From a virus (Duplodnaviria; Heunggongvirae; Uroviricota; Caudoviricetes), in the IMG/VR virus record IMGVR_UViG_2671180903_000004, positions 1 through 19,954 of that record: a stretch of 19,954 nt of DNA; one strand, 5' to 3'. Numbering within the stretch: position 1 is the first letter of the stretch; each line of letters opens with the position of its first letter. The notes under the pieces were generated by a model. It saw only the letters and a list, made by a program, of their open reading frames with translations. It did no database searches and was not told the origin of the DNA. Both the position numbers and the translations under genes were made by a program. Positions 8,173-19,954 of the stretch are shown piece by piece.

Positions 8173-8568
8173 ATGGCAAAAGTATTTACACCAGAAGAGC
8201 GGGAAGAAGTGAAGGCGCGCATTGTGGAATTCGTGCGCCTGAGCGGACGAGAAACTTTTCGACAACTGGCAGATAAAACGGGTGTCAGTAAGACCGCTAT
8301 TCGTCGTTTATCTGGTGCGCTTGCGGCCAGTGGTGATGTCTGGCTCTGTGATTGCGGGGTATTTCCATCAGAGCAGGCGTATCGCGTATGGCGTAAGACA
8401 CCGGAGAAGGCTGCTGACCCGACACTGATTCGAAAGTTACCAGACGGAGAAATACGCCGCTACGACAGGCGCCTGAATATAATCTGTCGCGAGTGCCGGA
8501 AGAGCGAAGCTATGCAGCGTGTACTGGCATTTTATCAAGGAAATGTTAGGTATTTTAGACGTTACTAG
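8173..8568 (+). CDS. Hypothetical HTH protein with C-terminal Cys cluster (131 aa)
   Basis: ATG 8173 with GGAGG SD 7 nt upstream (track start 8158 is TTG); HTH-like FRQLADKTGVSKTAIRRL; CDCG...CRECRK. Confidence 0.55.
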   Translation: MAKVFTPEEREEVKARIVEFVRLSGRETFRQLADKTGVSKTAIRRLSGALAASGDVWLCDCGVFPSEQAYRVWRKTPEKAADPTLIRKLPDGEIRRYDRRLNIICRECRKSEAMQRVLAFYQGNVRYFRRY

Positions 8569-8721
8569 ATTAAAGAGCATTAGTTCAGATGTGAATTGAC
8601 ATTTTCATGGCGCAGGGTAGAGCCAGCGTGGTTGTCCGCTTTGCGTCAAAACCAGATATTACCAGATTTAGACATATATTCCCGATAGCCCTGCTCTGAT
8701 GCTACACTCTGTGCTATTTTC

Positions 8722-9408
8722 ATGACCCCAATAAAAATATTTATGACTATTGCTGATTTCAAACGGCCTAAATTGGAACTCCCAAACGGGGCAAACAAAC
8801 TACTACTGCACTCTTGCTGTGCTCCATGTTCCGGTGAAGTGATGGAGGCGCTTCAGGCCTCGGGAATCGACTACACCATCTTTTTCTACAACCCGAACAT
8901 TCATCCTCAGAAAGAGTATTTAATTCGTAAGGATGAAAATATTCGCTTTGCTGAACAACACGGCGTGCCGTTTATCGATGCTGATTACGACACCGACAAC
9001 TGGTTTGAACGTGCCAAAGGAATGGAATGGGAGCCTGAGAGGGGGATCCGTTGTACCATGTGTTTTGACATGCGTTTTGAGCGGACAGCGTTGTACGCTG
9101 CTGAAAATGGTTTCAGTGTGATCAGTAGTTCACTGGGCATTTCACGCTGGAAAAATATGCAGCAGGTTAACGAGTGTGGGCGGCGAGCTGTTGCGCATTA
9201 TCCGGGTATGGTGTACTGGGATTATAACTGGCGCAAGCAGGGCGGCTCGTCCCGTATGATTGAAATCAGCAAGCGCGAAAAATTCTATCAGCAGGAATAT
9301 TGTGGCTGTGTGTATTCTCTGCGCGATACCAATCTACACCGCAAATCTCAGGGACGCCCTCTTATCAAAATTGGCCAACTCCACTACGGAAAAGAAGAGA
9401 AGGAGTGA
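8722..9408 (+). CDS. queH: QueH-like protein (DUF208, epoxyqueuosine reductase family), tentative
   Basis: Motif [11 protein letters not shown] near the N-terminus plus further Cys pairs (CTMC, CGC), length 228 aa, consistent with recalled DUF208/QueH features. Alternative start at 8743; neither has a strong SD. Own ~150-bp upstream intergenic region. Confidence 0.6.
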
Positions 9409-9439
9409 TTTTATGGATCACCTTTCTGATTGATTTCAT

Positions 9440-9645
9440 ATTGGCGAGGTGACGTGAGTTAAGTAGAATGGCTGCGGGTGCTTGAGGCTATCTGTCTCAG
9501 GCATGAACACTGAAAGGCAGACAGAGAAAAGCCCCAGTTAACATTACGCGTCCTGCAAGACGCTTAACATTAATCTGAGGCCCAATCTATGTCTCACAAA
9601 TGTAGGTTAGCCTCTTACGTGCCGAAAGGCAAGGAGAAGCAGGCT
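9440..9645 (+). promoter_or_regulatory. hok-type mRNA leader with expected antisense (sok-like) region
   Basis: Long untranslated leader upstream of hok; GGCGAGGTG at ~9446 is partly complementary to the 3' CACCTC element, as in hok mRNA 5'/3' pairing. Antisense RNA not directly identified. Confidence 0.4.
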
Positions 9646-9801
9646 ATGAAGCAGCAAAAGGCGATGTTAATCGCCCTGATCGTCATCTGTATTACCGTCG
9701 TAGTGACGGCACTGGTAACGAGGAAAGACCTCTGCGAGGTACGAATCCGAACCGGCCAGACGGAGGTCGCTGTCTTCGTAGCCTACGAATCTGAGAAGTA
9801 A
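9646..9801 (+). CDS. hok: Hok/Gef-family type I toxin (51 aa)
   Basis: MKQQKAMLIALIVICITVVVTALVTRKDLCEVRIRTGQTEVAVFVAYESEK matches the Hok/Gef family closely; AAGGAG SD 9 nt upstream. Confidence 0.85.
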   Translation: MKQQKAMLIALIVICITVVVTALVTRKDLCEVRIRTGQTEVAVFVAYESEK

Positions 9802-9808
9802 GAAACCA

Positions 9809-9830
9809 GGCGAGGGAGAAATCCCTCGCC
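9809..9830 (+). other. Stable hairpin at the 3' end of the hok transcript (fold-back element)
   Basis: GGCGAGGG (9809-9816) pairs with CCCTCGCC (9823-9830), 6-nt loop; 8 nt after the hok stop. Confidence 0.5.
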
Positions 9831-9905
9831 ACCTCTGATGTGTCAGGCATCCTCAACGCACCTGAGATAAAATCTATTTGGCTGTTTCTGGGTTCGAACT
9901 GATGA

Positions 9906-10259
9906 TTATTTAGTGCTAATACATGATTTAATTCCCTGAATCCTCTTGCTTTTCCCATTGGTGGGGTCTAAGACCCCTCGAAGGGAATAAAAATCAATGA
10001 TAGTAGAACCATCTGCCAACTTATAAATGTCGGCATTATCTGCAACCGCTAATACGCTGTAATACTTGCCAATTTTTTGAGACGTGATAGTGGCTAAGAG
10101 AGGTGTACGCTGCCACTCACTGAGAATGCATTCTTGTATTTCTTGTGGTGGAGAATTTGTTTTGAACGAGATAATAACATTTTGTTCTTCTCTGTAGTTA
10201 TAAGGGTTGACGCATCCTGAAATTGCAAAAACCAATAGAAAACAAATTGTTCTATTCAT
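9906..10259 (-). CDS. Putative lipoprotein (117 aa), AT-rich cargo gene
   Basis: Signal peptide with lipobox FAISGC, Val at +2; markedly AT-rich gene and flanks; convergent with hok and on the opposite strand to the surrounding nin-like genes. Confidence 0.65.
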   Translation of the reverse strand: MNRTICFLLVFAISGCVNPYNYREEQNVIISFKTNSPPQEIQECILSEWQRTPLLATITSQKIGKYYSVLAVADNADIYKLADGSTIIDFYSLRGVLDPTNGKSKRIQGIKSCISTK

Positions 10260-10320
10260 TTAGAAGCCCTTTTATAAGTATTTCTTGGTTATTTAAGTTT
10301 TTTGTTAGTGAAAATATAAA

Positions 10321-10620
10321 CTATAAAAAGTCAGATTCATAACTTTGCCCTCCATGGTAAATGCCAGCGATAAAGACTTTATTGCCATCAACGGCAAAAG
10401 CAATAATCGTTCTGTGGCGGAAGTGAGTTACTCGCATTCCCTGGCGAATATCATCGCGTTTATTGCCCCGATGTGGGAATGTAGAAAACCCATCAAGATA
10501 ATCAAGAAGCGCATTGGCATAATTGTCAGCAATGACGCTTCCTGCTTTCTCCGTTATATATCCGTGCAGGTTTATTATCTGCTGTTCGGCCTCGGGGGTA
10601 ATGATGACTTCAAATGTCAT
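10321..10620 (-). CDS. parE: ParE/RelE-superfamily toxin (99 aa)
   Basis: Starts 5 nt after the antitoxin stop; C-terminal RVTHFRHRTIIAFAVDGNKVFIAGIYHGG resembles ParE; typical size. Confidence 0.75.
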   Translation of the reverse strand: MTFEVIITPEAEQQIINLHGYITEKAGSVIADNYANALLDYLDGFSTFPHRGNKRDDIRQGMRVTHFRHRTIIAFAVDGNKVFIAGIYHGGQSYESDFL

Positions 10621-10625
10621 GCAGA

Positions 10626-10883
10626 TTACTTCCCGGATCGAATCGCGGCGCGAACCTGTGAAATGGAGCGTCCGTTGTTTGGATTTTCGCGGATAGAATC
10701 AAGAGAGGGGGCGGCTGAATGCGTTAACCACGCTTCGATTGCTTTATCGCGCTCATTCAGTGCGCGAAGCCCTTCACGAATGACCTCGCTTTCTGAAGCA
10801 TAGGCACCGGAAGCCACACGGGCGCGCACCATGTCAGCCATCTCGTTAGTTAATGTAATGCTGAATTGTTGGGTTGTACGCAT
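10626..10883 (-). CDS. parD: ParD-family (RHH) antitoxin (85 aa)
   Basis: Internal ATG at 10883..10881 with GAGGT SD 6 nt upstream; motif ITLTNEMADMVRARVASGAYASESEVIREGLRAL resembles ParD/CopG antitoxins. Confidence 0.75.
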   Translation of the reverse strand: MRTTQQFSITLTNEMADMVRARVASGAYASESEVIREGLRALNERDKAIEAWLTHSAAPSLDSIRENPNNGRSISQVRAAIRSGK

Positions 10884-11018
10884 GGTAAACCTCACGGAGT
10901 AGGATAGAACACTATTCGATGATAGCACGCTGCCTGTTGACGACAACAGAAATCAGAGACAATATTGCCGCACGCCAGCTTGAACAACTGGCACCTGCTG
11001 CGCCAGCAGAGAAAACAG

Positions 11019-11297
11019 ATGGCGCACGATACCAAACCATACAATTCTGATAATTCAGCCGTCTTTGCCAGCAGGCACGGGCGGCGTTCTCATGCATTCA
11101 AATCTGACTGGTATCAGCACGACCCCTGCACCGAAGAACAGGCTGAATGGCTGATTCAGTGTTACCGCAGGCGCGGATACGAGGTTAAGAAAGCCCTCAC
11201 CCTCGATTATCGTCACTGGATAATCTACGTCAGACTCCCTTATTCCGAACGCCCACCGCGTCCGTCCCGCACATATCAGCAACGCATCTGGAGGTAA
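11019..11297 (+). CDS. Hypothetical protein (92 aa)
   Basis: ATG 11019 chosen inside the track ORF; weak RBS; stop immediately precedes the next gene's start. Confidence 0.45.
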   Translation: MAHDTKPYNSDNSAVFASRHGRRSHAFKSDWYQHDPCTEEQAEWLIQCYRRRGYEVKKALTLDYRHWIIYVRLPYSERPPRPSRTYQQRIWR

Positions 11298-11298
11298 C

Positions 11299-12345
11299 GT
11301 GCGGGTATTACTTCGACCTGTTCTGGTACCGGAGTTCGGGCTGGTGGTCCTTAAGCCGGGCCGTGAATCCATGCAGGTATTTCATAACCCTCGAGTGCTG
11401 GTGGAGCCTGAACCGAAAAGCATGCGCGGGCTGCCGTCTGGAGTCGTTCCTGCCGTTCGCCAGCCGCTGGCGGAAGATAAATCATTACTGTCATTTTTCA
11501 GCAACGAACGGGTGATTCGCGCTGCAGGCGGTGCTGGTGCACTGTCTGACTGGCTCCTGCGTCATGTCAAATCCTGCCAGTGGCCTCATGGTGACTACCA
11601 TCACAGTGAAACCGTCATACATCGTTACGGTACCGGCGCGATGGTGTTGTGCTGGCACTGCGACAACCAGCTGCGTGACCAGACTTCCGAATCACTCGGG
11701 CAACTTGCTCACCAAAACCTGTCAGCATGGATGATTGACGTCATACGCCATGCAATGAATGGCACGCAGGAGCGGGAATTATCGCTGGCTGAATTATCCT
11801 GGTGGGCTGCCTGCAATCAGGTGGCGGACGCGCTACCGGAGGCAGTATTGCGTCGTTCGCTGGGATTACGTGCGGAAAAAATCCGCCCGGTGTACCGCGA
11901 AAGCGACATCATACCGGGAGAACCGACCGCCACCAGCATACTGAAGCAGCGCACAAAAAATCTTGCGCCGCTGCCTCACGCCCACCAGCAAAACCCGCCA
12001 CAGGAAAAGACGGTGGTCAGCATTGCTGTTGATCCGGAGTCTCCGGAATCTTTAATGAAGCGACCTAAACGTCGCCGTTGGGTAAATGAGAAATATACGC
12101 GCTGGGTAAAGACACAGCCGTGTGCGTGTTGTGGTAAGCCTGCTGACGATCCGCATCACCTGATTGGTCATGGTCAGGGGGGAATGGGGACAAAGGCCCA
12201 CGATATTTTCACGCTACCGTTGTGCCGGGAGCACCACAACGAACTTCATGCAGACCCGCTGGAGTTTGAGAAAAAGTACGGCTCTCAGATTGAGTTAATT
12301 TTTCGTTTTCTTGATCACGCCTTTGCGACTGGCGTGCTCGGGTAA
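11299..12345 (+). CDS. DUF968-type prophage protein with C-terminal HNH-like zinc-finger motif (YdfU-like)
   Basis: GTG 11299 with GGAGGT SD 4 nt upstream, right after the upstream stop; C-terminus CACCGKPADDPHHLIGHGQGGMGTKAHDIFTLPLCREHHNELH is HNH-like; size (348 aa) and position before rusA fit recalled YdfU-type proteins. Confidence 0.7.
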   Translation: MRVLLRPVLVPEFGLVVLKPGRESMQVFHNPRVLVEPEPKSMRGLPSGVVPAVRQPLAEDKSLLSFFSNERVIRAAGGAGALSDWLLRHVKSCQWPHGDYHHSETVIHRYGTGAMVLCWHCDNQLRDQTSESLGQLAHQNLSAWMIDVIRHAMNGTQERELSLAELSWWAACNQVADALPEAVLRRSLGLRAEKIRPVYRESDIIPGEPTATSILKQRTKNLAPLPHAHQQNPPQEKTVVSIAVDPESPESLMKRPKRRRWVNEKYTRWVKTQPCACCGKPADDPHHLIGHGQGGMGTKAHDIFTLPLCREHHNELHADPLEFEKKYGSQIELIFRFLDHAFATGVLG

Positions 12346-12357
12346 AAGAGGTGACTG

Positions 12358-12717
12358 ATGCTCATAGATTTGGTTTTACCTTACCCGCCGACGGTGAACA
12401 CTTACTGGCGACGCCGTGGCAGCACATATTTTGTATCAAAAGCCGGGGAGCGTTATCGCCGGGCAGTGGTGCTTATTGTTCGCCAGCAGCGACTGAAATT
12501 AAGCCTGTCCGGACGGCTGGCAATAAAAATTATTGCAGAGCCACCGGATAAGCGTCGTCGTGACCTGGACAATATTCTGAAAGCACCGCTGGATGCGCTG
12601 ACGCATGCGGGAGTGTTAATGGACGATGAGCAGTTTGATGAAATCAATATTGTACGTGGTCAGCCAGTATCTGGTGGACGGCTGGGTGTGAAGATTTACA
12701 AAATTGAGAGTGAGTGA
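12358..12717 (+). CDS. rusA: Holliday-junction resolvase RusA
   Basis: 119 aa; motifs LPYPPTVNTYW and DKRRRDLDNILKAPLDALTHAGVLMDD match recalled RusA; AGAGGTGA SD upstream. Confidence 0.85.
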   Translation: MLIDLVLPYPPTVNTYWRRRGSTYFVSKAGERYRRAVVLIVRQQRLKLSLSGRLAIKIIAEPPDKRRRDLDNILKAPLDALTHAGVLMDDEQFDEINIVRGQPVSGGRLGVKIYKIESE

Positions 12718-12725
12718 GCGTAAAT

Positions 12726-13256
12726 ATGATATATCCGGAAATTACAGGCAAAAGCGGCGAACATTTACGCCTGAACACGCTGGAAGCAGTCTGGATCCAG
12801 GGGAAATTACGGATGTGGGGGCGGTGGTCGTATATCGGTGGGGGTAAATCCGGAAATATGTTTAACCGGTTACTGGTTTCGAAAAAGCTGACGAAAACAG
12901 CAGTTAATGAGGTTTTACGCAGCATGAAGAAATCCGGGCTGGAAAAACCGGAACTTGAGGCATTTTTTCGGGATATGACCAGAGGGAAGCAGAAGAGCTG
13001 GTTGTCACATTGTACAGACACAGAGGCGTTGATTATTGATCGCGTTATCAGTGAGGTGCTTGGGGAATATCCCGGGCTAATCAATATTCTCCGGCAAAGG
13101 TACGAAGGACGGGGAATGAGTAAGAGAAAAATGGCAGAATGTTTAAATCGTACTCACCCGGAATGGTGTTTCAGCACATGTGAGAAACGTATTGCAGGTT
13201 GGTTAGCCGTGGCTGAACACATGCTTTATGTACCTATGCACGATTCATTTCGATAA
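12726..13256 (+). CDS. Q: Late-gene antiterminator, Q-like (176 aa)
   Basis: Sits directly upstream of a promoter-like region and tR'-type terminator and after rusA, the canonical Q position; ATG 12726 preferred over the GTG at 12714 that overlaps the rusA stop. Sequence family not independently confirmed. Confidence 0.65.
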   Translation: MIYPEITGKSGEHLRLNTLEAVWIQGKLRMWGRWSYIGGGKSGNMFNRLLVSKKLTKTAVNEVLRSMKKSGLEKPELEAFFRDMTRGKQKSWLSHCTDTEALIIDRVISEVLGEYPGLINILRQRYEGRGMSKRKMAECLNRTHPEWCFSTCEKRIAGWLAVAEHMLYVPMHDSFR

Positions 13257-13351
13257 AAAAAGCTTGCTTTTTTACGCAGAAACAGCTTGAATTCCTGTAA
13301 GCTTCGCAAAGCTGTATCGCGAGGCGAAATGCAAGTTTTTTCGCACAAGGA
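13257..13351 (+). promoter_or_regulatory. Putative late promoter (PR'-like) and Q-utilisation region
   Basis: Intergenic region between Q and a strong intrinsic terminator; -35-like TTGAAT present. Exact -10 and start site not resolved by eye. Confidence 0.4.
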
Positions 13352-13375
13352 AGCCACCGGAAGGTGGTTTTTTTG
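13352..13375 (+). terminator. Rho-independent terminator (tR'-like)
   Basis: CCACC-GGAA-GGTGG stem-loop (13354-13367) followed by TTTTTTT (13368-13374). Confidence 0.7.
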
Positions 13376-13495
13376 TGTCCGTAATATACAGCAGCGCAAT
13401 AAATTCGCTGGTGGTTATTAATACCGTTCTTTCAGCTTGCTGGCTTTTTCGACAAGAGTTATTGGTGTGTCACGTTAACCGGAAAAGGAAAAGAC

Positions 13496-13693
13496 ATGCT
13501 AAAACAGCAGGATATGACAGAAACCGCCAGAGTGGTGTTTAATGAATTAAGCGTTACCGACCCGGCGACAGTCGGGGAGATTGCGCAGAATACTTACCTT
13601 TCACGCGAACGCTGCCAGTTAATACTGACCCAGCTGGTTATGGCGGGTCTGGCAGACTATCAGTTCGGTTGTTACAGACGCCTTCCGCAGTGA
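13496..13693 (+). CDS. Small winged-helix-like protein (65 aa), unknown function
   Basis: ATG 13496 with AAGGAAAAG SD; ATVGEIAQNTYLSRERCQLILTQLVMAGLADY looks like a wHTH recognition region; enclosed between two intrinsic terminators. Confidence 0.5.
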   Translation: MLKQQDMTETARVVFNELSVTDPATVGEIAQNTYLSRERCQLILTQLVMAGLADYQFGCYRRLPQ

Positions 13694-13704
13694 AGGCTTT
13701 TTTA
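13680..13704 (+). terminator. Rho-independent terminator overlapping the stop of the 65-aa ORF
   Basis: GCCTTC-cgcagt-GAAGGC (13680-13697) followed by TTTTTTT; the TGA stop lies in the loop/stem. Confidence 0.55.
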
Positions 13705-13843
13705 TTTGTGGTAAATGGGCGGCTGGTGGGTGTTAGGGGCACCCACCAGCCATCTGCTCATGCGTTGGGTTCACAAGCAAACCTCAGGCCCACTGCTTTG
13801 CGCAAAAGCAGAATGAGCCTATCAGAGACAGGCTTAATGATCC

Positions 13844-14893
13844 ATGCTTAATACTGTAAAAATATCCAGTTGTGAGTTAATCAACGCCGACTGCCTGGAA
13901 TTTATCCGGTCGTTACCCGAAAATTCTGTTGACCTGATAGTCACGGACCCGCCGTACTTTAAAGTGAAGCCTGAGGGCTGGGATAACCAGTGGAAGGGCG
14001 ACGATGATTACCTGAAGTGGCTGGACCAGTGTCTGGCGCAGTTCTGGCGGGTGCTGAAACCTGCCGGAAGTCTTTACCTGTTCTGTGGTCATCGCCTGGC
14101 ATCTGATATCGAAATCATGATGCGTGAACGCTTCAGTGTGCTGAACCATATTATCTGGGCGAAGCCTTCCGGACGCTGGAACGGGTGCAACAAGGAAAGC
14201 CTGCGGGCGTATTTCCCCGCCACAGAGCGCATTCTGTTCGCGGAACATTATCAGGGGCCGTATCGTCCGAAAGATGCCGGGTATGAGGCGAAGGGCAGGG
14301 CACTGAAACAGCATGTGATGGCCCCGCTGATTTCTTACTTTCGTGATGCATGCGCGGCCCTGGGGATAACGGCAAAACAGATTGCAGATGCCACAGGAAA
14401 GAAAAACATGGTGTCGCACTGGTTCAGTGCCAGTCAGTGGCAGTTGCCGAACGAAAGCGATTATCTGAAATTACAGGCACTGTTTGCTAGGGTGGCAGAA
14501 GAGAAGCATCAGCGGGGGGAACTGGAAAAGCCCCACCACCAGCTGGTGGATACGTATACTTCACTGAACCGACAGTATGCGGAGCTGCAGAGTGAATATA
14601 AACATCTGCGGCGGTATTTTGGTGTGACGGCGCAGGTGCCGTACACGGATGTGTGGACACATAAACCGGTGCAGTTCTATCCCGGGAAACATCCGTGCGA
14701 AAAACCGGCAGAAATGCTGCAGCAGATAATCAGCGCAAGTAGTCGTCCTGGTGATCTGGTTGCGGATTTTTTCATGGGGTCGGGTTCAACGGTAAAAGCG
14801 GCACTGGCGCTCGGGCGTCGTGCGATTGGCGTTGAACTGGAGACAGGACGTTTTGAGCAGACAGTCAGGGAAGTTCAGGATTTAATCGTTTGA
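13844..14893 (+). CDS. Orphan DNA methyltransferase, beta-class (motif IV before motif I), probably N6-adenine
   Basis: DPPY (VTDPPYF) near the N-terminus and FxGxG (FFMGSGST) near the C-terminus, with a long variable region between; no adjacent restriction endonuclease gene. Confidence 0.85.
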   Translation: MLNTVKISSCELINADCLEFIRSLPENSVDLIVTDPPYFKVKPEGWDNQWKGDDDYLKWLDQCLAQFWRVLKPAGSLYLFCGHRLASDIEIMMRERFSVLNHIIWAKPSGRWNGCNKESLRAYFPATERILFAEHYQGPYRPKDAGYEAKGRALKQHVMAPLISYFRDACAALGITAKQIADATGKKNMVSHWFSASQWQLPNESDYLKLQALFARVAEEKHQRGELEKPHHQLVDTYTSLNRQYAELQSEYKHLRRYFGVTAQVPYTDVWTHKPVQFYPGKHPCEKPAEMLQQIISASSRPGDLVADFFMGSGSTVKAALALGRRAIGVELETGRFEQTVREVQDLIV

Positions 14894-14942
14894 AACGGAT
14901 GAGATTGCAGAATTAATTACGCACCATTATTATTCTGCTCCC

Positions 14943-15018
14943 GGCCCTTTAGCTCAGTGGTGAGAGCGAGCGACTCATAATCGCCAGGTCGCTGGTTCAA
15001 ATCCAGCAAGGGCCACCA
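14943..15018 (+). tRNA. tRNA with CAT anticodon (Met or Ile2/lysidine type, ileZ-like)
   Basis: Hand-folded cloverleaf: acceptor GGCCCTT/AAGGGCC, D-arm GCTC...GAGC, anticodon loop CTCATAA, T-arm GCTGG-TTCAAAT-CCAGC, encoded CCA. Confidence 0.85.
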
Positions 15019-15025
15019 TCACATA

Positions 15026-15099
15026 CCGCCATTAGCTCATCAGGAAAGAGCGCCAGCCTTCGAAGCTGGTTGCGCGGAGTTCGGGTCCCCGAAGGCGGT
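15026..15099 (+). tRNA. tRNA-Arg(TCG)-like, possibly degenerate
   Basis: Anticodon arm CCAGC-CTTCGAA-GCTGG is clean, but hand-folding shows an A-A mismatch in the acceptor stem, an A-C mismatch in the T-stem, T-loop TTCGGGT, C at position 1 and no encoded CCA. Confidence 0.5.
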
Positions 15100-15115
15100 T
15101 CATTATCTGTATCCT

Positions 15116-15192
15116 GCGTTGTTAGCTCAGCCGGACAGAGCAATTGCCTTCTAAGCAATCGGTCACTGGTTCGAATCCAGTACAACGCGCCA
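15116..15192 (+). tRNA. tRNA-Arg (anticodon TCT)
   Basis: Acceptor GCGTTGT/ACAACGC, anticodon loop CTTCTAA, T-arm ACTGG-TTCGAAT-CCAGT, discriminator G, encoded CCA. Confidence 0.85.
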
Positions 15193-15206
15193 CACTTATT
15201 TTCCCT

Positions 15207-15232
15207 GGCTCGCTTTTGCGGGCCTTTTTTTT
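15207..15232 (+). terminator. Strong rho-independent terminator after the tRNA cluster
   Basis: GGCTCGC-tttt-GCGGGCC stem-loop (one G-U pair) followed by eight T residues (15225-15232). Confidence 0.7.
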
Positions 15233-15428
15233 AAATGTCTCACAATTCAGGCGGTTGACTGTTGTCTGGTTTGCGGGGAGTTTGTTAAAAGAAACTGGCA
15301 TGGTGAATCCCCCTGTGCGGAGGGGCAATCAGCGAGTAGGTATATGGGATAATCGCGGATTCAGGTGCTGGTACTGAATTCACCGGGAGGCACCCGGCAC
15401 CATGCAATGGCACATAGCGCCACTCTCC

Positions 15429-15456
15429 AGCCCCTCTCCGGAGGGGCTGTTTATAT
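15429..15456 (+). terminator. Terminator-like hairpin (perfect 8-bp stem AGCCCCTC/GAGGGGCT, 4-nt loop) followed by a T-rich tract
   Basis: Stem 15429-15436 / 15441-15448, then GTTTATATTGATTTT; lies between the structured region after the tRNAs and the stop of the reverse ORF. Confidence 0.45.
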
Positions 15457-15483
15457 TGATTTTGTCAGATGTGAGTAAACTCC

Positions 15484-15819
15484 TTATGGACTTTGTTGTT
15501 TTAGCCCATAAGGACATATTTGCAGAGTGCAACGGTTATTAAAGCATTCATTCAATACGTTATCTGTATTTGTAGGGCATTCCTGGCTGTTTTTGATTAA
15601 ATTCCAGAATGTTTTATTGAATGGTACTACGTTGTAAATGGTTACAGGTAGCACTTTGTTATTGAGCATGATGCCTGTGTGAGTCAGTGTAAATATACTT
15701 TCAGGAGGTAAGAAAGCATCCGATTGATACCAGATTATTAATTTTATTTTACTCCATATGACTGAAAAAGATATTCCGCATGATGGCTGGATAACTGTAT
15801 CAATCACAATCCACTTCAT
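15484..15819 (-). CDS. Hypothetical protein (111 aa), AT-rich reverse-oriented cargo at the stx-equivalent position
   Basis: ATG at 15819..15817 with AAGGAAA SD; gene and flanks are clearly AT-rich versus neighbours; minus-strand -35-like TTTACA with imperfect -10 candidates upstream (plus 15858-15886); no recognisable family. Confidence 0.35.
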
Positions 15820-16079
15820 TTGGTTTCCTTGTTTATGCATTGCTGGTGATGTTCTGAAAAGTATAAATGATATTTTTGAATGTAAACCATAGAGCAGAAT
15901 TATTTTTCTGATGTTGTTTATTGTTTATTTAAATGCAGGGTGGTTTATATCTCGTCTTGTAGTTTATCCATGCATATCTGCTTGATGATGAGGTTTTTAT
16001 TTAAGGTATGGTTTTGTGTTTTTTCTGTATTACATGTCAGGTATTTTAAAGAATCATTTTTCAGATGGTGGAAAGAACC

Positions 16080-17945
16080 ATGGCATTTAAACACTATGAT
16101 GTTGTCAGGGCGGCGTCGCCGTCAGATCTTGCGGAAAAGCTGACACATAAACTGAAAGAGGGCTGGCAGCCGTTTGGTAGTCCGGTGGCCATAACCCCTT
16201 ATACTCTGATGCAGGCGATTGCAGCAGAAGGTGCAGTAATCAGCGCCACCAGCGACCCGGAGTATTACTTTGTTGTGGTTCTGGCAGGGCAGTCAAACGG
16301 CATGTCGTATGGTGAAGGCCTTCCGCTGCCGGGGACATATGACCGTCCGGACCCGCGTATTAAGCAACTGGCGCGTCGCAGTACGGTGACACCGGGCGGT
16401 GCAGCATGCAAATATAACGACATCATTCCGGCGGACCATTGTCTGCATGATGTGCAGGACATGAGCCGTCTTAACCATCCGAAAGCGGACCTGTCAAAGG
16501 GGCAGTACGGAACCGTGGGGCAGGGGCTGCATATCGCCAAAAAACTGCTGCCGTTTATACCGGCGAATGCGGGCATTCTGCTGGTTCCGTGCTGTCGTGG
16601 TGGTTCAGCGTTCACCACCGGAGCTGATGGCACATACAGTGACGCGAGTGGTGCCTCGGAGAATTCAACCCGCTGGGGTGTGGACAAGCCGCTGTATAAG
16701 GACCTTATCGGTCGAACAAAAGCGGCACTGGAGAAGAACCCGAAAAATGTGCTGTTTGCCGTGGTGTGGATGCAGGGGGAATTTGATTTTGGCGGTACGC
16801 CGGCAAATCATGCCGCACAGTTTGGTGCGCTGGTTGATAAATTCCGTGCAGACCTGGCGGATATGGCAGGCCAGTGCGTCGGTGGCTCTGCTGGCGGTGT
16901 TCCCTGGATATGCGGGGACACGACGTATTTCTGGAAGCAGAAGAACGAATCCACGTACCAGACGGTGTACGGCAGCTATAAAAATAAAACGGAAAAGAAT
17001 ATCCATTTCGTACCGTTCATGACCGATGAGAACGGGGTGAATGTGCCGACGAACAAACCGGAAGAAGACCCGGACATTCCGGGTATCGGTTATTACGGTT
17101 CGAAATGGCGTGACAGCTCAGCCACCTGGACGTCACAGGACAGGGCGAGCCATTTCAGTTCATGGGCTCGCCGTGGGATTATTTCCGACCGTCTGGCAAC
17201 GGCGATTCTGAGCTGCGCGGGTAAGTCTTCTGCGTTTGTTAATGGTACTGCCGGGGTGGTTGTTCCAGACAGGCCGGTTACCACCTCAGAGTCTGTAATT
17301 TTTTACGATGCCAAAAAAGCTACAGACAATCAGCTGAAACCTTATGGCTGGGACGGTATGTATGGCAGACGCACACTGGTTGATGACAGCGGCAATAAAG
17401 CTCTGCGAATTGAGAAAAATAACAGCGCGAAATCCTGGTCAATGTACTGTGATATTGCTGCAGACAAGGCAAAACTTTTACTGGAAAAAGGCGGGGAAAT
17501 TGCTGTCCGGTTTAAAATCCCCGAAAACGTCAATCTTGAGACAACCAGAAACAAGTATGCCTTTGGTTTGTACTGGCGAATAGCGGAATGGCCGGGTGAG
17601 GGTGGTGAAGGCCATCTGAGTTCTTTCTTTGTCCAGACAGATAAAGCCAGTATTAATGTTGCATACCATCATACAGTTAATCAACAAAAAGAACTTGGCA
17701 CGTTTGGCGCATTCGACCATGACTGGCATACGCTTGCATTTAAATTTAAGGGCAGTAACAGCATTAATGTTACTCCGGTGCTTGATGGTGTGGATGGACA
17801 GGCGTTTGACCTGGTGAAATGGGCCAATACTGCTAATGGACTCAACAGGTTTGTCATTACGGATATTACAGGTAGTGCAGAAACCTACCCTGTACTTATT
17901 GATACGGTGGAAGTTAAAGCAAACAAAGCTGGAGCAGCCGCATAA
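16080..17945 (+). CDS. nanS: Prophage O-acetyl sialate esterase, NanS-p-like (N-terminal DUF1737-like region, SASA/SGNH esterase core, C-terminal lectin-like region)
   Basis: 621 aa from ATG 16080; motif VVLAGQSNGMSYGEG (esterase Ser motif); N-terminus MAFKHYDVV...EGWQPFGSPV recalled from the large ORF downstream of stx in Stx phages; position just upstream of the lysis cassette. Confidence 0.75.
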   Translation: MAFKHYDVVRAASPSDLAEKLTHKLKEGWQPFGSPVAITPYTLMQAIAAEGAVISATSDPEYYFVVVLAGQSNGMSYGEGLPLPGTYDRPDPRIKQLARRSTVTPGGAACKYNDIIPADHCLHDVQDMSRLNHPKADLSKGQYGTVGQGLHIAKKLLPFIPANAGILLVPCCRGGSAFTTGADGTYSDASGASENSTRWGVDKPLYKDLIGRTKAALEKNPKNVLFAVVWMQGEFDFGGTPANHAAQFGALVDKFRADLADMAGQCVGGSAGGVPWICGDTTYFWKQKNESTYQTVYGSYKNKTEKNIHFVPFMTDENGVNVPTNKPEEDPDIPGIGYYGSKWRDSSATWTSQDRASHFSSWARRGIISDRLATAILSCAGKSSAFVNGTAGVVVPDRPVTTSESVIFYDAKKATDNQLKPYGWDGMYGRRTLVDDSGNKALRIEKNNSAKSWSMYCDIAADKAKLLLEKGGEIAVRFKIPENVNLETTRNKYAFGLYWRIAEWPGEGGEGHLSSFFVQTDKASINVAYHHTVNQQKELGTFGAFDHDWHTLAFKFKGSNSINVTPVLDGVDGQAFDLVKWANTANGLNRFVITDITGSAETYPVLIDTVEVKANKAGAAA

Positions 17946-18084
17946 TTGCTAAAAAAAGCCGCCAGCGGCAGGAATGGAAGCTGGCGGAGGTAATCCCAAT
18001 GGAGAATGTAAAGAAAAGATGCTTTCGTACATTGGTTTTTTAAATGAAAACAATTCTCATTGTCAACCATAACGGTAAGAAATT

Positions 18085-18267
18085 ATGACATTTATTCATC
18101 AGGTGATGCTGTACTTCTGTACGGCGGTCTGTGTGCTGTATCTTCTTTCGGGTGGGTACAGGGCTGTGCGCGATTTCTGGTGCAGGCAGATTGATAAAAG
18201 GGCCGCTGAGAAAATCAGCGCCAGTCAGTCAGCCGGAAGCAAACCCGAAGAACCCGTTACTCCTTAA
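18085..18267 (+). CDS. Small membrane protein (60 aa), unknown function
   Basis: One hydrophobic segment (VMLYFCTAVCVLYLLSGG); weak RBS. Confidence 0.4.
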   Translation: MTFIHQVMLYFCTAVCVLYLLSGGYRAVRDFWCRQIDKRAAEKISASQSAGSKPEEPVTP

Positions 18268-18292
18268 CAACCCCTTTCAGCGAGAAAATCCC

Positions 18293-18538
18293 ATGTCAGA
18301 AATCACATCCCTGGTCACTGCAGAGGCAGTGAAGGAAGTCCTGCGCTCTGAAGAAGTCCGGAGCGCACTGAAACAGAAACTTCGCCAGAATCTTGAGTCG
18401 CGTCTTGATGCAGAAGTGGATGCCATTCTGGATGAGCTGCTGGGCGTAGCAGCGGTTCCTGAGCCGGAAGGTATCGCGGGTGACGGGAGTGCTTCAGATG
18501 GCGGTGAACCTACACCTGACAGCGACATGATGATGTAA
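18293..18538 (+). CDS. Small acidic protein (81 aa), unknown function
   Basis: Internal ATG 18293 with GAGAAAA upstream; predicted helical and acidic with a C-terminal D/E/G/S-rich tail. Confidence 0.45.
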
Positions 18539-18614
18539 GCATGCGCAAGGGACCATCGGTGTGTGCCGGTGGTCTTTATATTGTTGTGAGCTTCCGGATT
18601 GCGGGAGACGGGGT

Positions 18615-18830
18615 ATGTACCAGATGGAAAAAATCACAACAGGTGTGTCATACACCACGTCAGCGGTGGGAACGGGCTACTGGTTCCTGCAGTTGCTGGA
18701 CAGGGTTTCCCCGTCTCAGTGGGCGGCAATAGGCGTGCTGGGGAGTCTGTTGTTTGGGCTGCTGACATATCTGACTAACCTGTATTTCAAAATCAGAGAG
18801 GACCGTCGTAAGGCGGCGCGGGGAGAGTAA
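18615..18830 (+). CDS. S: Class II holin / pinholin, phage 21 S-like, with dual-start motif
   Basis: [71 protein letters not shown] closely matches recalled S21; two in-frame ATGs (18615, 18624) give the antiholin/holin pair; two TM segments. Confidence 0.85.
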
Positions 18831-18834
18831 AGCG

Positions 18835-19179
18835 ATGAAGAAAAAATACGAACTGGTTGTTAAAGGGATAAATAATTACCCGAATAAGATTACTGTTACT
18901 GTGGCACTGGAAATTGGTGGGTATCCGTCACTGTTGTTGCCAGATGTGGCGATTAGTCTTGACCGTACTGAAGATGCCACGCTGGAGTTTTACGAAGCTG
19001 AGGCGAAAAAGCAGGCGAAGCAGTTTTTCATGGATGTTGCTGCCGGGTTATGTGAAGGGGATGGTCCGTTGCCGGAAAAGCGCCCCGTAATTTTAGAGGC
19101 GCAGGATGTGTTGATAACCTACAGAGGAAAACTACCGGGAATAATTACTGGTTCTCTGAAGACTCCACCGCTGGCCTGA
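18835..19179 (+). CDS. Hypothetical protein (114 aa) inserted between holin and endolysin
   Basis: ATG 18835 with GGAGAG SD, 5 nt after the holin stop; no TM segment or signal peptide; no recognisable family. Confidence 0.55.
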   Translation: MKKKYELVVKGINNYPNKITVTVALEIGGYPSLLLPDVAISLDRTEDATLEFYEAEAKKQAKQFFMDVAAGLCEGDGPLPEKRPVILEAQDVLITYRGKLPGIITGSLKTPPLA

Positions 19180-19229
19180 AGACTTAACATATCCAGGGAT
19201 TTGAAATCGATAAACCCTGATAAATATCC

Positions 19230-19763
19230 ATGAACACCAAAATCAGATACGGCCTGTCGGCTGCCGTTCTGGCGCTGATTGCCGCAGGTGCGCCTGCGCC
19301 TGAAATCCTCGACCAGTTTCTGGATGAAAAGGAAGGTAACCACACCACGGCATACCGTGATGGCGCGGGTATCTGGACCATCTGCCGCGGTGCCATCCTG
19401 GTGGATGGTAAACCTGTCGTCCCGGGCATGAAGTTGTCGAAGGAAAAATGCGACCAGGTTAACGCCATTGAACGTGATAAGGCGCTGGAGTGGGTGGAGC
19501 GCAATATTAAAGTACCGCTGACCGAACCCCAGAAAGCGGGGATCGCGTCATTCTGTCCGTACAACATTGGTCCCGGTAAGTGTTTCCCGTCGACGTTTTA
19601 TAAACGAATTAATGCAGGTGATCGAAAAGGTGCCTGCGAAGCGATTCGCTGGTGGATTAAGGACGGTGGCAGAGACTGCCGTATTCGCTCAAACAACTGT
19701 TACGGTCAGGTATCCCGTCGCGACCAGGAGAGTGCGCTGGCGTGCTGGGGAATTGACAGATAA
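19230..19763 (+). CDS. R: SAR endolysin (phage lysozyme, T4-lysozyme fold, R21-like)
   Basis: N-terminal signal-anchor-release segment LSAAVLALIAAGAPAP followed by the catalytic E...D...T motif (EGNHTTAYRDGAGIWTICRG); 177 aa. Confidence 0.9.
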   Translation: MNTKIRYGLSAAVLALIAAGAPAPEILDQFLDEKEGNHTTAYRDGAGIWTICRGAILVDGKPVVPGMKLSKEKCDQVNAIERDKALEWVERNIKVPLTEPQKAGIASFCPYNIGPGKCFPSTFYKRINAGDRKGACEAIRWWIKDGGRDCRIRSNNCYGQVSRRDQESALACWGIDR

Positions 19764-19857
19764 GCAGAATATTTTGCTGAAAAATAAGGCGTGGCCACGC
19801 GGGCGGATAACACGAAATCCTGCGAACTGGCGAAACGTAAGTGAATAAAAGTAAAAA

Positions 19858-19892
19858 CCCCGTTTGTTGGCACCAAGCGGGGTTTTGTGTTT
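19858..19892 (+). terminator. Terminator-like hairpin downstream of the endolysin
   Basis: CCCCG...CGGGG stem (19858-19862 / 19878-19882) with a 15-nt loop, followed by TTTTGTGTTT. Confidence 0.4.
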
Positions 19893-19919
19893 CTGACCTT
19901 GAGTAAGGCAAGGGAGAAC

Positions 19920-19954
19920 ATGGCGAAGTATAAACGAATTCTGTTGAGGTTGAC
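19920..19954 (+). CDS. 5' end of an unidentified gene (MAKYKRILLRL...), continues past the window end
   Basis: ATG 19920 with AAGGGAGAA SD; only 11 codons visible, so product is unknown. Confidence 0.35.
   Translation, partial: MAKYKRILLRL

Follow-up and report, generated by a model that had tools for sequence, protein, structure and literature searches.

The stretch of DNA analyzed here, hereafter the window (19,954 nucleotides (nt); positions 1 to 19,954 of the IMG/VR virus record IMGVR_UViG_2671180903_000004, Caudoviricetes), covers the late regulatory region of an Escherichia coli-type lambdoid prophage. It carries a gene for a DNA adenine methyltransferase closely related to M.EcoGII, which forms part of a conserved cassette in the leader of the late operon. 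The elements follow one another in the order Q-like gene, putative weak late promoter pR', terminator T0, winged-helix gene, terminator T1, leader of ~140 nt, methyltransferase gene, transfer RNA (tRNA) genes, terminator, and esterase and lysis genes. The family and identity of the enzyme, this gene order, the terminators, and the conservation and fixed position of the leader are directly established. We consider it likely that this M.EcoGII-type cassette is gated by the terminators, induced through Q, and used for anti-restriction, with the leader RNA acting as a second layer of control.

Identity of the methyltransferase

The methyltransferase gene (13844–14893, + strand) encodes an orphan N6-adenine methyltransferase of the M.EcoGII family, 349 amino acids (aa) in length. 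A first-pass annotation, made from the sequence without database searches, had proposed a beta-class enzyme from the presence of a DPPY motif before an FxGxG motif, and the profile match to PF01555 (151 bits against a cutoff of 26.7; E = 6e-44) assigned the protein to that family. The motifs were located at residues 35–38 (DPPY) and 310–314 (FMGSG), with the recognition domain between them, which is the beta-class order, and both were invariant across 12 homologues. The intervening segment had been described as a long variable region, a description that did not hold: it is not variable within the M.EcoGII family and corresponds to the four-helix-bundle target recognition domain described for M.EcoGII. 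The enzyme lacks a partner endonuclease, as had been noted, and its neighbors are the Q-like gene, RusA, tRNA genes, an esterase, and a lysozyme.

In a full-length BLASTP alignment, 331 of 350 positions were identical to M.EcoGII (~95%), a value that is approximate because the reference was a machine-read PDF copy of Supplementary Table S1 of PMC11551740 with evident reading errors. At the DNA level, the region 13406–15233 was 94.4% identical to phage 1720a-02, the methyltransferase of which was named as very similar to M.EcoGII by Murray et al. (PMC5778455). The exact protein encoded in the window is already public, including as ACD07257.1 / B2TZ43_SHIB3, under the name "site-specific DNA-methyltransferase", which is probably wrong for the M.EcoGII family. 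Public annotations also differ in the start of the gene, giving proteins of 337, 349, or 352 aa (13844 in the window, 6633 in locus L003, and 2900 in locus L001). A sequence search of the Protein Data Bank retrieved only distant beta-class enzymes and no structure of M.EcoGII. Judged by its sequence, the enzyme is a close copy of the already characterized M.EcoGII, and the finding is largely known.

M.EcoGII and M.EcoGI of E. coli O104:H4 C227-11 are prophage-borne and are not expressed in normal growth (PMC5778455). M.EcoGII methylates adenine in every dinucleotide context, modifying up to 99% of deoxyadenosines in vitro, and also acts in vitro on single-stranded DNA, RNA, and DNA:RNA hybrids; many restriction enzymes are directly blocked by its methylation (PMC5778455). 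Constitutive expression of M.EcoGII results in slow growth and unstable clones (PMC5778455), and its authors proposed that it is switched on at prophage excision, overcoming restriction (PMC5778455; PMC12707154), in agreement with the protection of progeny DNA that the first-pass annotation had suggested. The enzyme of the window shares with M.EcoGII its length, the beta-class motif order, the lambdoid prophage setting, and the lack of a partner endonuclease, and its gene context matches that of phage 1720a-02. On the other hand, it differs from M.EcoGII by ~18 amino acids, several of them in the target recognition domain (residues 235–275), and its activity is assigned by homology. Non-specific activity, toxicity, and silence in the lysogen were described in the literature for M.EcoGII rather than for this allele, and may by analogy be expected here.

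Given this near-identity, the enzyme would convert adenines in any context to N6-methyladenine (m6A). Because the predicted target is any adenine, there is no motif to predict, and the readout suggested in the first-pass annotation (prediction of the target, with the absence of a new methylation motif on induction taken as refutation) would mislead, since an enzyme without a motif would lead to the wrong refutation of a correct idea. The readout should instead be bulk N6-methyldeoxyadenosine.

The enzyme is well known as a laboratory reagent; its natural control is not described, and the conserved leader and its partner gene look undescribed, in the available literature. The available portion of the M.EcoGII publication contains no account of a small gene upstream, of terminators, or of a leader, and our literature searches found no study of the regulation of an M.EcoGII-type enzyme or of its expression on induction.

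A conserved leader with a predicted RNA fold upstream of the methyltransferase

The spacer between the small open reading frame (ORF) and the methyltransferase gene measures 147–154 nt in Enterobacteriaceae. Within it, the leader (13707–13843) shows ~80% nt identity across genera, which is higher than the identity of the small ORF (62–77%), the methyltransferase gene (69–78%), or the upstream sequence (~55%). A covariance model of the spacer detected a single copy in each locus, and the 3' end of every copy coincided with the methyltransferase ATG. The leader was present in 49 of the 83 loci fetched via the methyltransferase, including loci without the small ORF. In the reverse test, in which viral contigs were searched for the leader motif, the methyltransferase ATG lay 74–75 nt after the motif in all 77 of the leader-found viral loci with enough sequence.

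The leader is predicted to fold into two domains. A perfect 10-bp hairpin had been noted in this region as a site that the small protein might bind. The perfect pairing was found, but its core lies at 13723–13732 / 13740–13749, 2 nt to the right of where it had been placed, and the inverted repeat extends to 12 bp (GGCTGGTGGGTG / CACCCACCAGCC, 13721–13732 / 13740–13751); moreover, the hairpin is not a stand-alone protein-binding site but the core of the conserved structured leader. Domain 1 (P1; 13715–13761, + strand) is a long hairpin, in which this inverted repeat is extended by the pairing of AUGGGC (13715–13720) with GCUCAU (13756–13761). Domain 2 (P2; 13762–13847, + strand), obtained from RNAalifold and single-sequence folds, is a long-range helix with nested helices, in which 13767–13771 and 13775–13778 pair with 13832–13835 and 13839–13843, the bases just 5' of the AUG. 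In the fold of the window sequence, the AUG itself pairs with 13762–13765, and no Shine–Dalgarno sequence is visible at the methyltransferase start.

The RNAalifold consensus and the folds of six diverged leaders agree on the two domains, with z-scores of −1.6 to −5.3. In the alignment of 56 distinct leaders, which was fitted to the fold model, 96.5% of cells pair, versus 20–38% in slid controls, and 7 of the 30 pairs are changed on both sides, a number reached in none of 500 shuffles. The G·U wobbles and compensatory changes at the paired bases fit the + strand only. In Xenorhabdus and Photorhabdus, the spacer is shorter and contains only a P1-like hairpin, the stem sequences of which differ yet remain paired, and which is often followed by a run of U residues (U-run). 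Reading the leader as coding sequence (a 60-aa ORF with a TTG start at 13669–13851) was rejected because 1-nt insertions and deletions break the frame across homologues.

The spacer could also be conserved for a role as DNA, whether as a promoter or operator for the enzyme or as a recombination joint, with the small ORF as an unlinked accessory gene in a mosaic region. This is compatible with the replaceability of the small ORF and with a leader conserved mainly in its primary sequence, with limited covariation, and a TG-N-GAAAAT motif just before P1 (TGTGAAAAT) resembles an extended −10 element in many loci. However, that motif lacks the key A or T in approximately one-third of the sequences, in which the extended −10 reading fails, and it was dropped. 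The linkage itself extends from E. coli to Xenorhabdus despite divergence of the small protein to 40% identity, the pairing is maintained by wobbles and two-sided changes on one strand, the independent folds of diverged sequences agree, and the distance to the ATG is invariant. Taken together, these observations make an explanation at the DNA level unlikely.

Somewhat short of an even chance, in our estimation, is the further proposition that the leader is a cis-regulatory RNA dedicated to M.EcoGII-family methyltransferases across the Enterobacterales, with two domains, switched by an effector, and hiding the start codon. Candidate effectors are the winged-helix protein; the enzyme itself, which binds and methylates RNA and could act by feedback; and S-adenosylmethionine (SAM) or S-adenosylhomocysteine (SAH). 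A search of 13702–13847 against Rfam 15 gave no match at the gathering thresholds, including those of the SAM and SAH riboswitch classes, and the best hit in a permissive search was P26, on the minus strand, with 24 bits against a cutoff of 36. If the proposition were true, such an RNA would provide the missing explanation for the silent carriage of a lethal promiscuous methylase by nearly half of the searched complete E. coli genomes. In either case, the conserved leader is a concrete and easily mutated target for testing control.

In almost all leaders, the ATG is directly preceded by a GATC (Dam) site (13839–13842 in the window), and many have a second GATC ~70 nt upstream in the pairing strand. 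These sites may be a simple consequence of the helix or may have a role at the DNA level.

Putative late promoter and terminators

The cassette lies downstream of a Q-like late antiterminator gene of the DUF1133 family (12714–13256, + strand; PF06576, E = 1e-110), which also matched PF06530 (Phage_antitermQ; 35 bits against a cutoff of 26) and PHROG 753 ("anti-termination protein Q-like"; E = 4e-74). A putative late promoter pR' (13264–13292, + strand) follows, with a −35 element TTGCTT (13264–13269), a 17-nt spacer, and a −10 element TTGAAT (13287–13292), although a consensus promoter scan of 12600–16200 reported no + strand promoter. The case for pR' comes from comparison: five loci of other genera with a DUF1133 Q homologue (42–46% identity) have a good sigma-70 promoter after the Q stop, which reads TTGACT-N16/17-TAATAT in L043, L048, L079, and L083 and TTGACT-N16-TAATAT in a Xenorhabdus example. 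In the same five loci, a conserved GTATAAGCTTCGC-like element is present, followed ~60 nt later by a GC hairpin and a T-run. The window aligns with this layout, with TTGCTT, the 17-nt spacer, TTGAAT, TGTAAGCTTCGC, and then T0. Compared with the TAATAT of the orthologous loci, the late promoter of this prophage may, from its sequence, have been weakened.

The tR'-like terminator T0 (13354–13374, + strand; CCACCggaaGGTGG) consists of CCACC-ggaa-GGTGG followed by seven T residues; it was read directly from the sequence, the hairpin scan having listed it on the minus strand only. The predicted RNA from the pR' start to T0 would be short (~75 nt). In nearly all of ~50 loci, a GC-rich hairpin with a T-run marks the 5' edge of the cassette, whatever lies upstream. 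The second terminator, T1 (13680–13703, + strand; GCCTTCcgcagtGAAGGC), consists of GCCTTC-cgcagt-GAAGGC followed by six T residues, and was found where the first-pass annotation had placed a terminator closing the 65-aa ORF. It overlaps the TGA stop of this ORF (13691–13693), which spans the loop and the 3' arm. A hairpin occupies the T1 position in 44 of 47 distinct loci; its stem varies in sequence but stays paired, and the stop codon of the small ORF falls in or beside its loop. Because the hairpin is kept where the small ORF is lost, T1 belongs with the leader. Few types besides that of E. coli have the long U-run that makes T1 a strong terminator. By number alone, the terminator-like sites are not above chance (6 versus 4.1 ± 2.3 in shuffles); the features are credible above chance because they are conserved in >100 related loci.

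The proposed placement of the two genes in the late-operon leader is thus borne out by the Q-like gene and the tR'-like terminator upstream and by the further terminators downstream, and late, Q-dependent expression may soundly be inferred from this position. The layout resembles the late leader of lambdoid and Shiga toxin (Stx) phages (Q, pR', tR'). In Stx lysogens, pR' is constitutive and is terminated immediately downstream, giving the RNA StxS (PMC7547250). The window shares with these leaders a Q-family gene, a putative adjacent promoter, a predicted short transcript ended by an intrinsic terminator, and accessory genes (tRNAs, and stx in the Stx phages) that lie before the lysis genes and would be read only after antitermination. 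It differs from them in that its Q is of the DUF1133 type, its putative promoter is weak, and an STnc100-family small RNA (sRNA) occupies the position of stx.

The small winged-helix gene and the conserved upstream box

The small gene at 13496–13693 (+ strand) encodes a 65-aa winged-helix protein of PHROG 331. It had been proposed as an ORF resembling a winged helix-turn-helix protein, and several lines of evidence confirm that it is a real gene. Of 80 species-representative genome loci, 62 have a homologue of 62–67 aa immediately before the methyltransferase gene, and these range from Escherichia to Xenorhabdus, Photorhabdus, and Providencia; the ORF was also present in 65 of 74 viral contigs found through the leader and not through either protein. 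The ratio of nonsynonymous to synonymous substitution rates (0.04–0.19) indicates purifying selection, and AlphaFold2 predicted a winged helix (H1-H2-H3 plus a beta wing), with a predicted local distance difference test score of 90 for the best model and scores near 60 for the other four. The small ORF was swapped for unrelated genes in 16 of the 80 loci, in which the methyltransferase was intact, indicating that the linkage between the two genes is strong but not obligatory. Judging from the cloning reported in PMC5778455, cloned M.EcoGII would be active without the small protein.

The protein itself gives few clues to its function. It has a weak match to Pfam TrmB (E = 0.004, below the cutoff), NCBIfam contains no model for it, and PHROG 331 has no assigned function. 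When the winged-helix model was used in a Foldseek search, all matches were generic (IclR, MarR, methyltransferase dimerization domains, SelB, and Z-alpha), and none had E < 0.001. The composition of the protein is slightly acidic, and its conservation is greatest in the helix 3 stretch RCQL.LTQ...AGL.

A conserved box, CTTGCTG-N10-CAAGAGTTATTGGTGTGTCAC (13436–13473, + strand), is located ~25 nt upstream of the small ORF. Its parts CTTGCTG, CAGAGTTA, and TGT.TG hardly vary among loci that range from E. coli to Xenorhabdus and Providencia, and the box and the small ORF are present or absent together. The promoter scan recognized no consensus sigma-70 promoter in the box, and no palindromic operator or C-box was found in 13375–13495. 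When the conserved boxes were compared visually with RfaH ops, boxA/nut, and sigma-54 elements, the matches were poor, and these readings were dropped.

The leader and the small winged-helix gene may together help to keep a toxic enzyme off until late phage growth. For the protein, which the first-pass annotation had suggested could be a dedicated regulator, the data favor none of three candidate roles: activation in the manner of Com, action as a repressor or antidote, or an accessory function unrelated to the enzyme. As an activator, in the manner of com–mom of phage Mu, it would bind the leader RNA at P1 or at single-stranded stretches and open the start helix for late translation. This is suggested by the position of the small gene, immediately before the gene for a toxic DNA-modifying enzyme whose start region is predicted to be base-paired, by the spacing of the small ORF and the enzyme, which is fixed at ~150 nt in Enterobacteriaceae, and by the ability of some winged-helix domains to bind RNA, SelB being among the fold matches. 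However, the fold is a winged helix and not the Com zinc finger, and RNA-binding proteins do not usually have a net charge of about −1, the value obtained by counting residues. The 16 loci that have lost the small gene retain both leader and enzyme, and a terminator separates the two genes. We regard activation by this protein as improbable.

Both com–mom and the cassette have a late DNA-modification gene that is toxic if expressed early, a small gene directly upstream, layered control, and RNA structure over the start of the modification gene, which is only predicted here. In Mu, Com is a zinc finger and com overlaps mom, whereas here the upstream protein is modeled as a winged helix without CxxC pairs in its sequence, and so without a Com-type zinc finger, and its gene is 150 nt away with a terminator between. 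Mom also makes carbamoylmethyl-adenine and not m6A, and control in Mu is exerted by the activator C and by Dam/OxyR and not by Q antitermination; an activator role in the window is hypothetical. The small gene likewise recalls the controller (C) proteins of restriction–modification systems, in which a small protein with a DNA-binding fold, encoded just upstream of the modification gene, could time its expression. C proteins, however, have an Xre-type helix-turn-helix that binds palindromic C-boxes, whereas the protein here has a winged helix and no endonuclease accompanies it.

The opposite role is equally doubtful. As a repressor or antidote, the small gene would be expressed in the lysogen from the conserved box, its transcript would stop at T1, and the protein would repress or bind the methyltransferase in the manner of an antitoxin. 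Phage accessory genes typically show such an arrangement of box, ORF, and terminator, and neither the box nor the ORF occurs without the other. The small gene precedes that of a toxic enzyme, and its product is slightly acidic. Among the best structural matches of this product are winged-helix dimerization domains of SAM-dependent methyltransferases, which mediate contacts between proteins. On the other hand, these fold matches are all weak, the box is not a recognizable sigma-70 promoter, the 150-nt distance and the intervening terminator are unlike the arrangement of coupled toxin–antitoxin genes, and the methyltransferase is intact in loci without the small gene.

Proposed mechanism

In the mechanism that we consider likely, namely, terminator gating with induction through Q, transcripts from pR' would end at T0 and T1 in the lysogen, and the toxic enzyme would not be made. 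On induction, Q would render RNA polymerase terminator-resistant, and the cassette would be read together with the late genes. Replicating phage DNA would then become heavily adenine-methylated, and the progeny DNA would escape many restriction systems that are blocked by adenine methylation. As a second layer, the folded leader would pair the start region, which has no Shine–Dalgarno sequence, and would limit the translation of leaky transcripts. Here, it is the dependence on Q, the anti-restriction role, and the control of translation by the leader that we infer. If the terminators and the leader do gate expression in this way, this would explain how a toxic enzyme can be carried safely in a prophage and how spreading induced phages, Stx phages included, evade restriction.

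Several points weigh against this mechanism. The dependence on Q is read from position, the −10 element of pR' (TTGAAT) is poor, lacking the key A at position 2, and the promoter was missed by the scan. The conserved box at 13436–13473 could be a promoter, in which case part of the cassette would be Q-independent. In many genera, T1 lacks a good U-run and may terminate poorly. The covariation of the leader is modest, being limited to the 7 of 30 pairs in the fitted alignment, and most columns are invariant; UGGGC (13716–13720) pairs equally well with GCUCA or GCCCA, and the available variation cannot discriminate between them. The approximate reference sequence for M.EcoGII also counts here.

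A main role other than anti-restriction, such as the modification of phage or host RNA (the adjacent tRNAs or late mRNAs) or the marking of DNA for packaging or replication, is very unlikely: M.EcoGII does methylate single-stranded DNA, RNA, and DNA:RNA hybrids in vitro, and in the E. coli and Stx-phage records examined for their annotation, phage tRNA genes always follow the gene, but RNA is a much poorer substrate than DNA (0.12 versus 11.1 in table units; Table S3, PMC11551740), the methylation directly blocks many restriction enzymes, and no evidence for an RNA role was found.

Distribution of the cassette

The region 13250–14900 matched 2586 of 5426 complete E. coli genomes, at up to 8 places per genome, and 2006 genomes had one place or more with at least 80% coverage. 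About half of the searched complete E. coli genomes thus contain the cassette. In Stx2 phages it lies directly upstream of the toxin genes: in many Stx2a, Stx2c, Stx2d, and Stx2e phages, it is located between Q on one side and the tRNA genes and stx2 on the other. In some Stx2a phages, "DNA methylases" of 352 aa had been noted downstream of Q in a published survey. A scan of viral contigs with the methyltransferase alignment, made for extra diversity, returned only near-identical E. coli loci.

The homology to phages with other Q types starts just 3' of T0, as expected at a junction between modules. In these phages, the cassette is still located downstream of Q on the same strand, sometimes with intervening genes.

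Neighboring genes and other features

Upstream of the Q-like gene, the window contains a DUF968/HNH-like gene (11299–12345, + strand) and the RusA gene (12358–12717, + strand). Downstream of the methyltransferase are three tRNA genes (14943–15192, + strand) with the anticodons CAT, TCG (Arg), and TCT (Arg). From 14893 to 14943 the scan listed no terminator, and the methyltransferase and the tRNA genes probably share one transcript. The first tRNA (14943–15018, + strand) was called as Met (CAT) by ARAGORN and is annotated as tRNA-Ile (ileZ) in related phage records; the latter annotation implies a lysidine modification of the anticodon. A terminator (15207–15232, + strand; GGCTCGC-tttt-GCGGGCC followed by eight T residues) lies 3' of the tRNA genes. 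Farther downstream on the same strand are a NanS-p-like esterase gene (16065–17945, + strand) and, among the lysis genes 3' of the cassette, a phage lysozyme gene (19230–19763, + strand); in locus L003, which is 98% identical, holin, lysozyme, and Rz-type genes are annotated.

This prophage has no stx. The STnc100-family prophage sRNA (15269–15458, + strand), which follows the tRNA genes in the place that stx occupies in Stx phages, is a full-length match to RF02076 (132 bits) and has its own terminator (15428–15449). Between the sRNA and the esterase gene, a 118-aa ORF (15484–15840) lies on the opposite, minus strand; it belongs to PHROG 4407, which has no assigned function, and two promoter-like sites of the minus strand (15927–15899 and 15768–15741) are located near it. 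Elsewhere in the prophage, a DicF sRNA (RF00039) was found at 2661–2712 (− strand), and a sok antitoxin RNA (RF01794) at 9476–9651 (+ strand) forms part of a hok/sok locus, with hokD annotated in the near-identical L003. The prophage also encodes QueH, an epoxyqueuosine reductase (8722–9408, + strand; PF02677, E = 1e-65), and so carries a tRNA-modification enzyme beside its cargo of three tRNAs.

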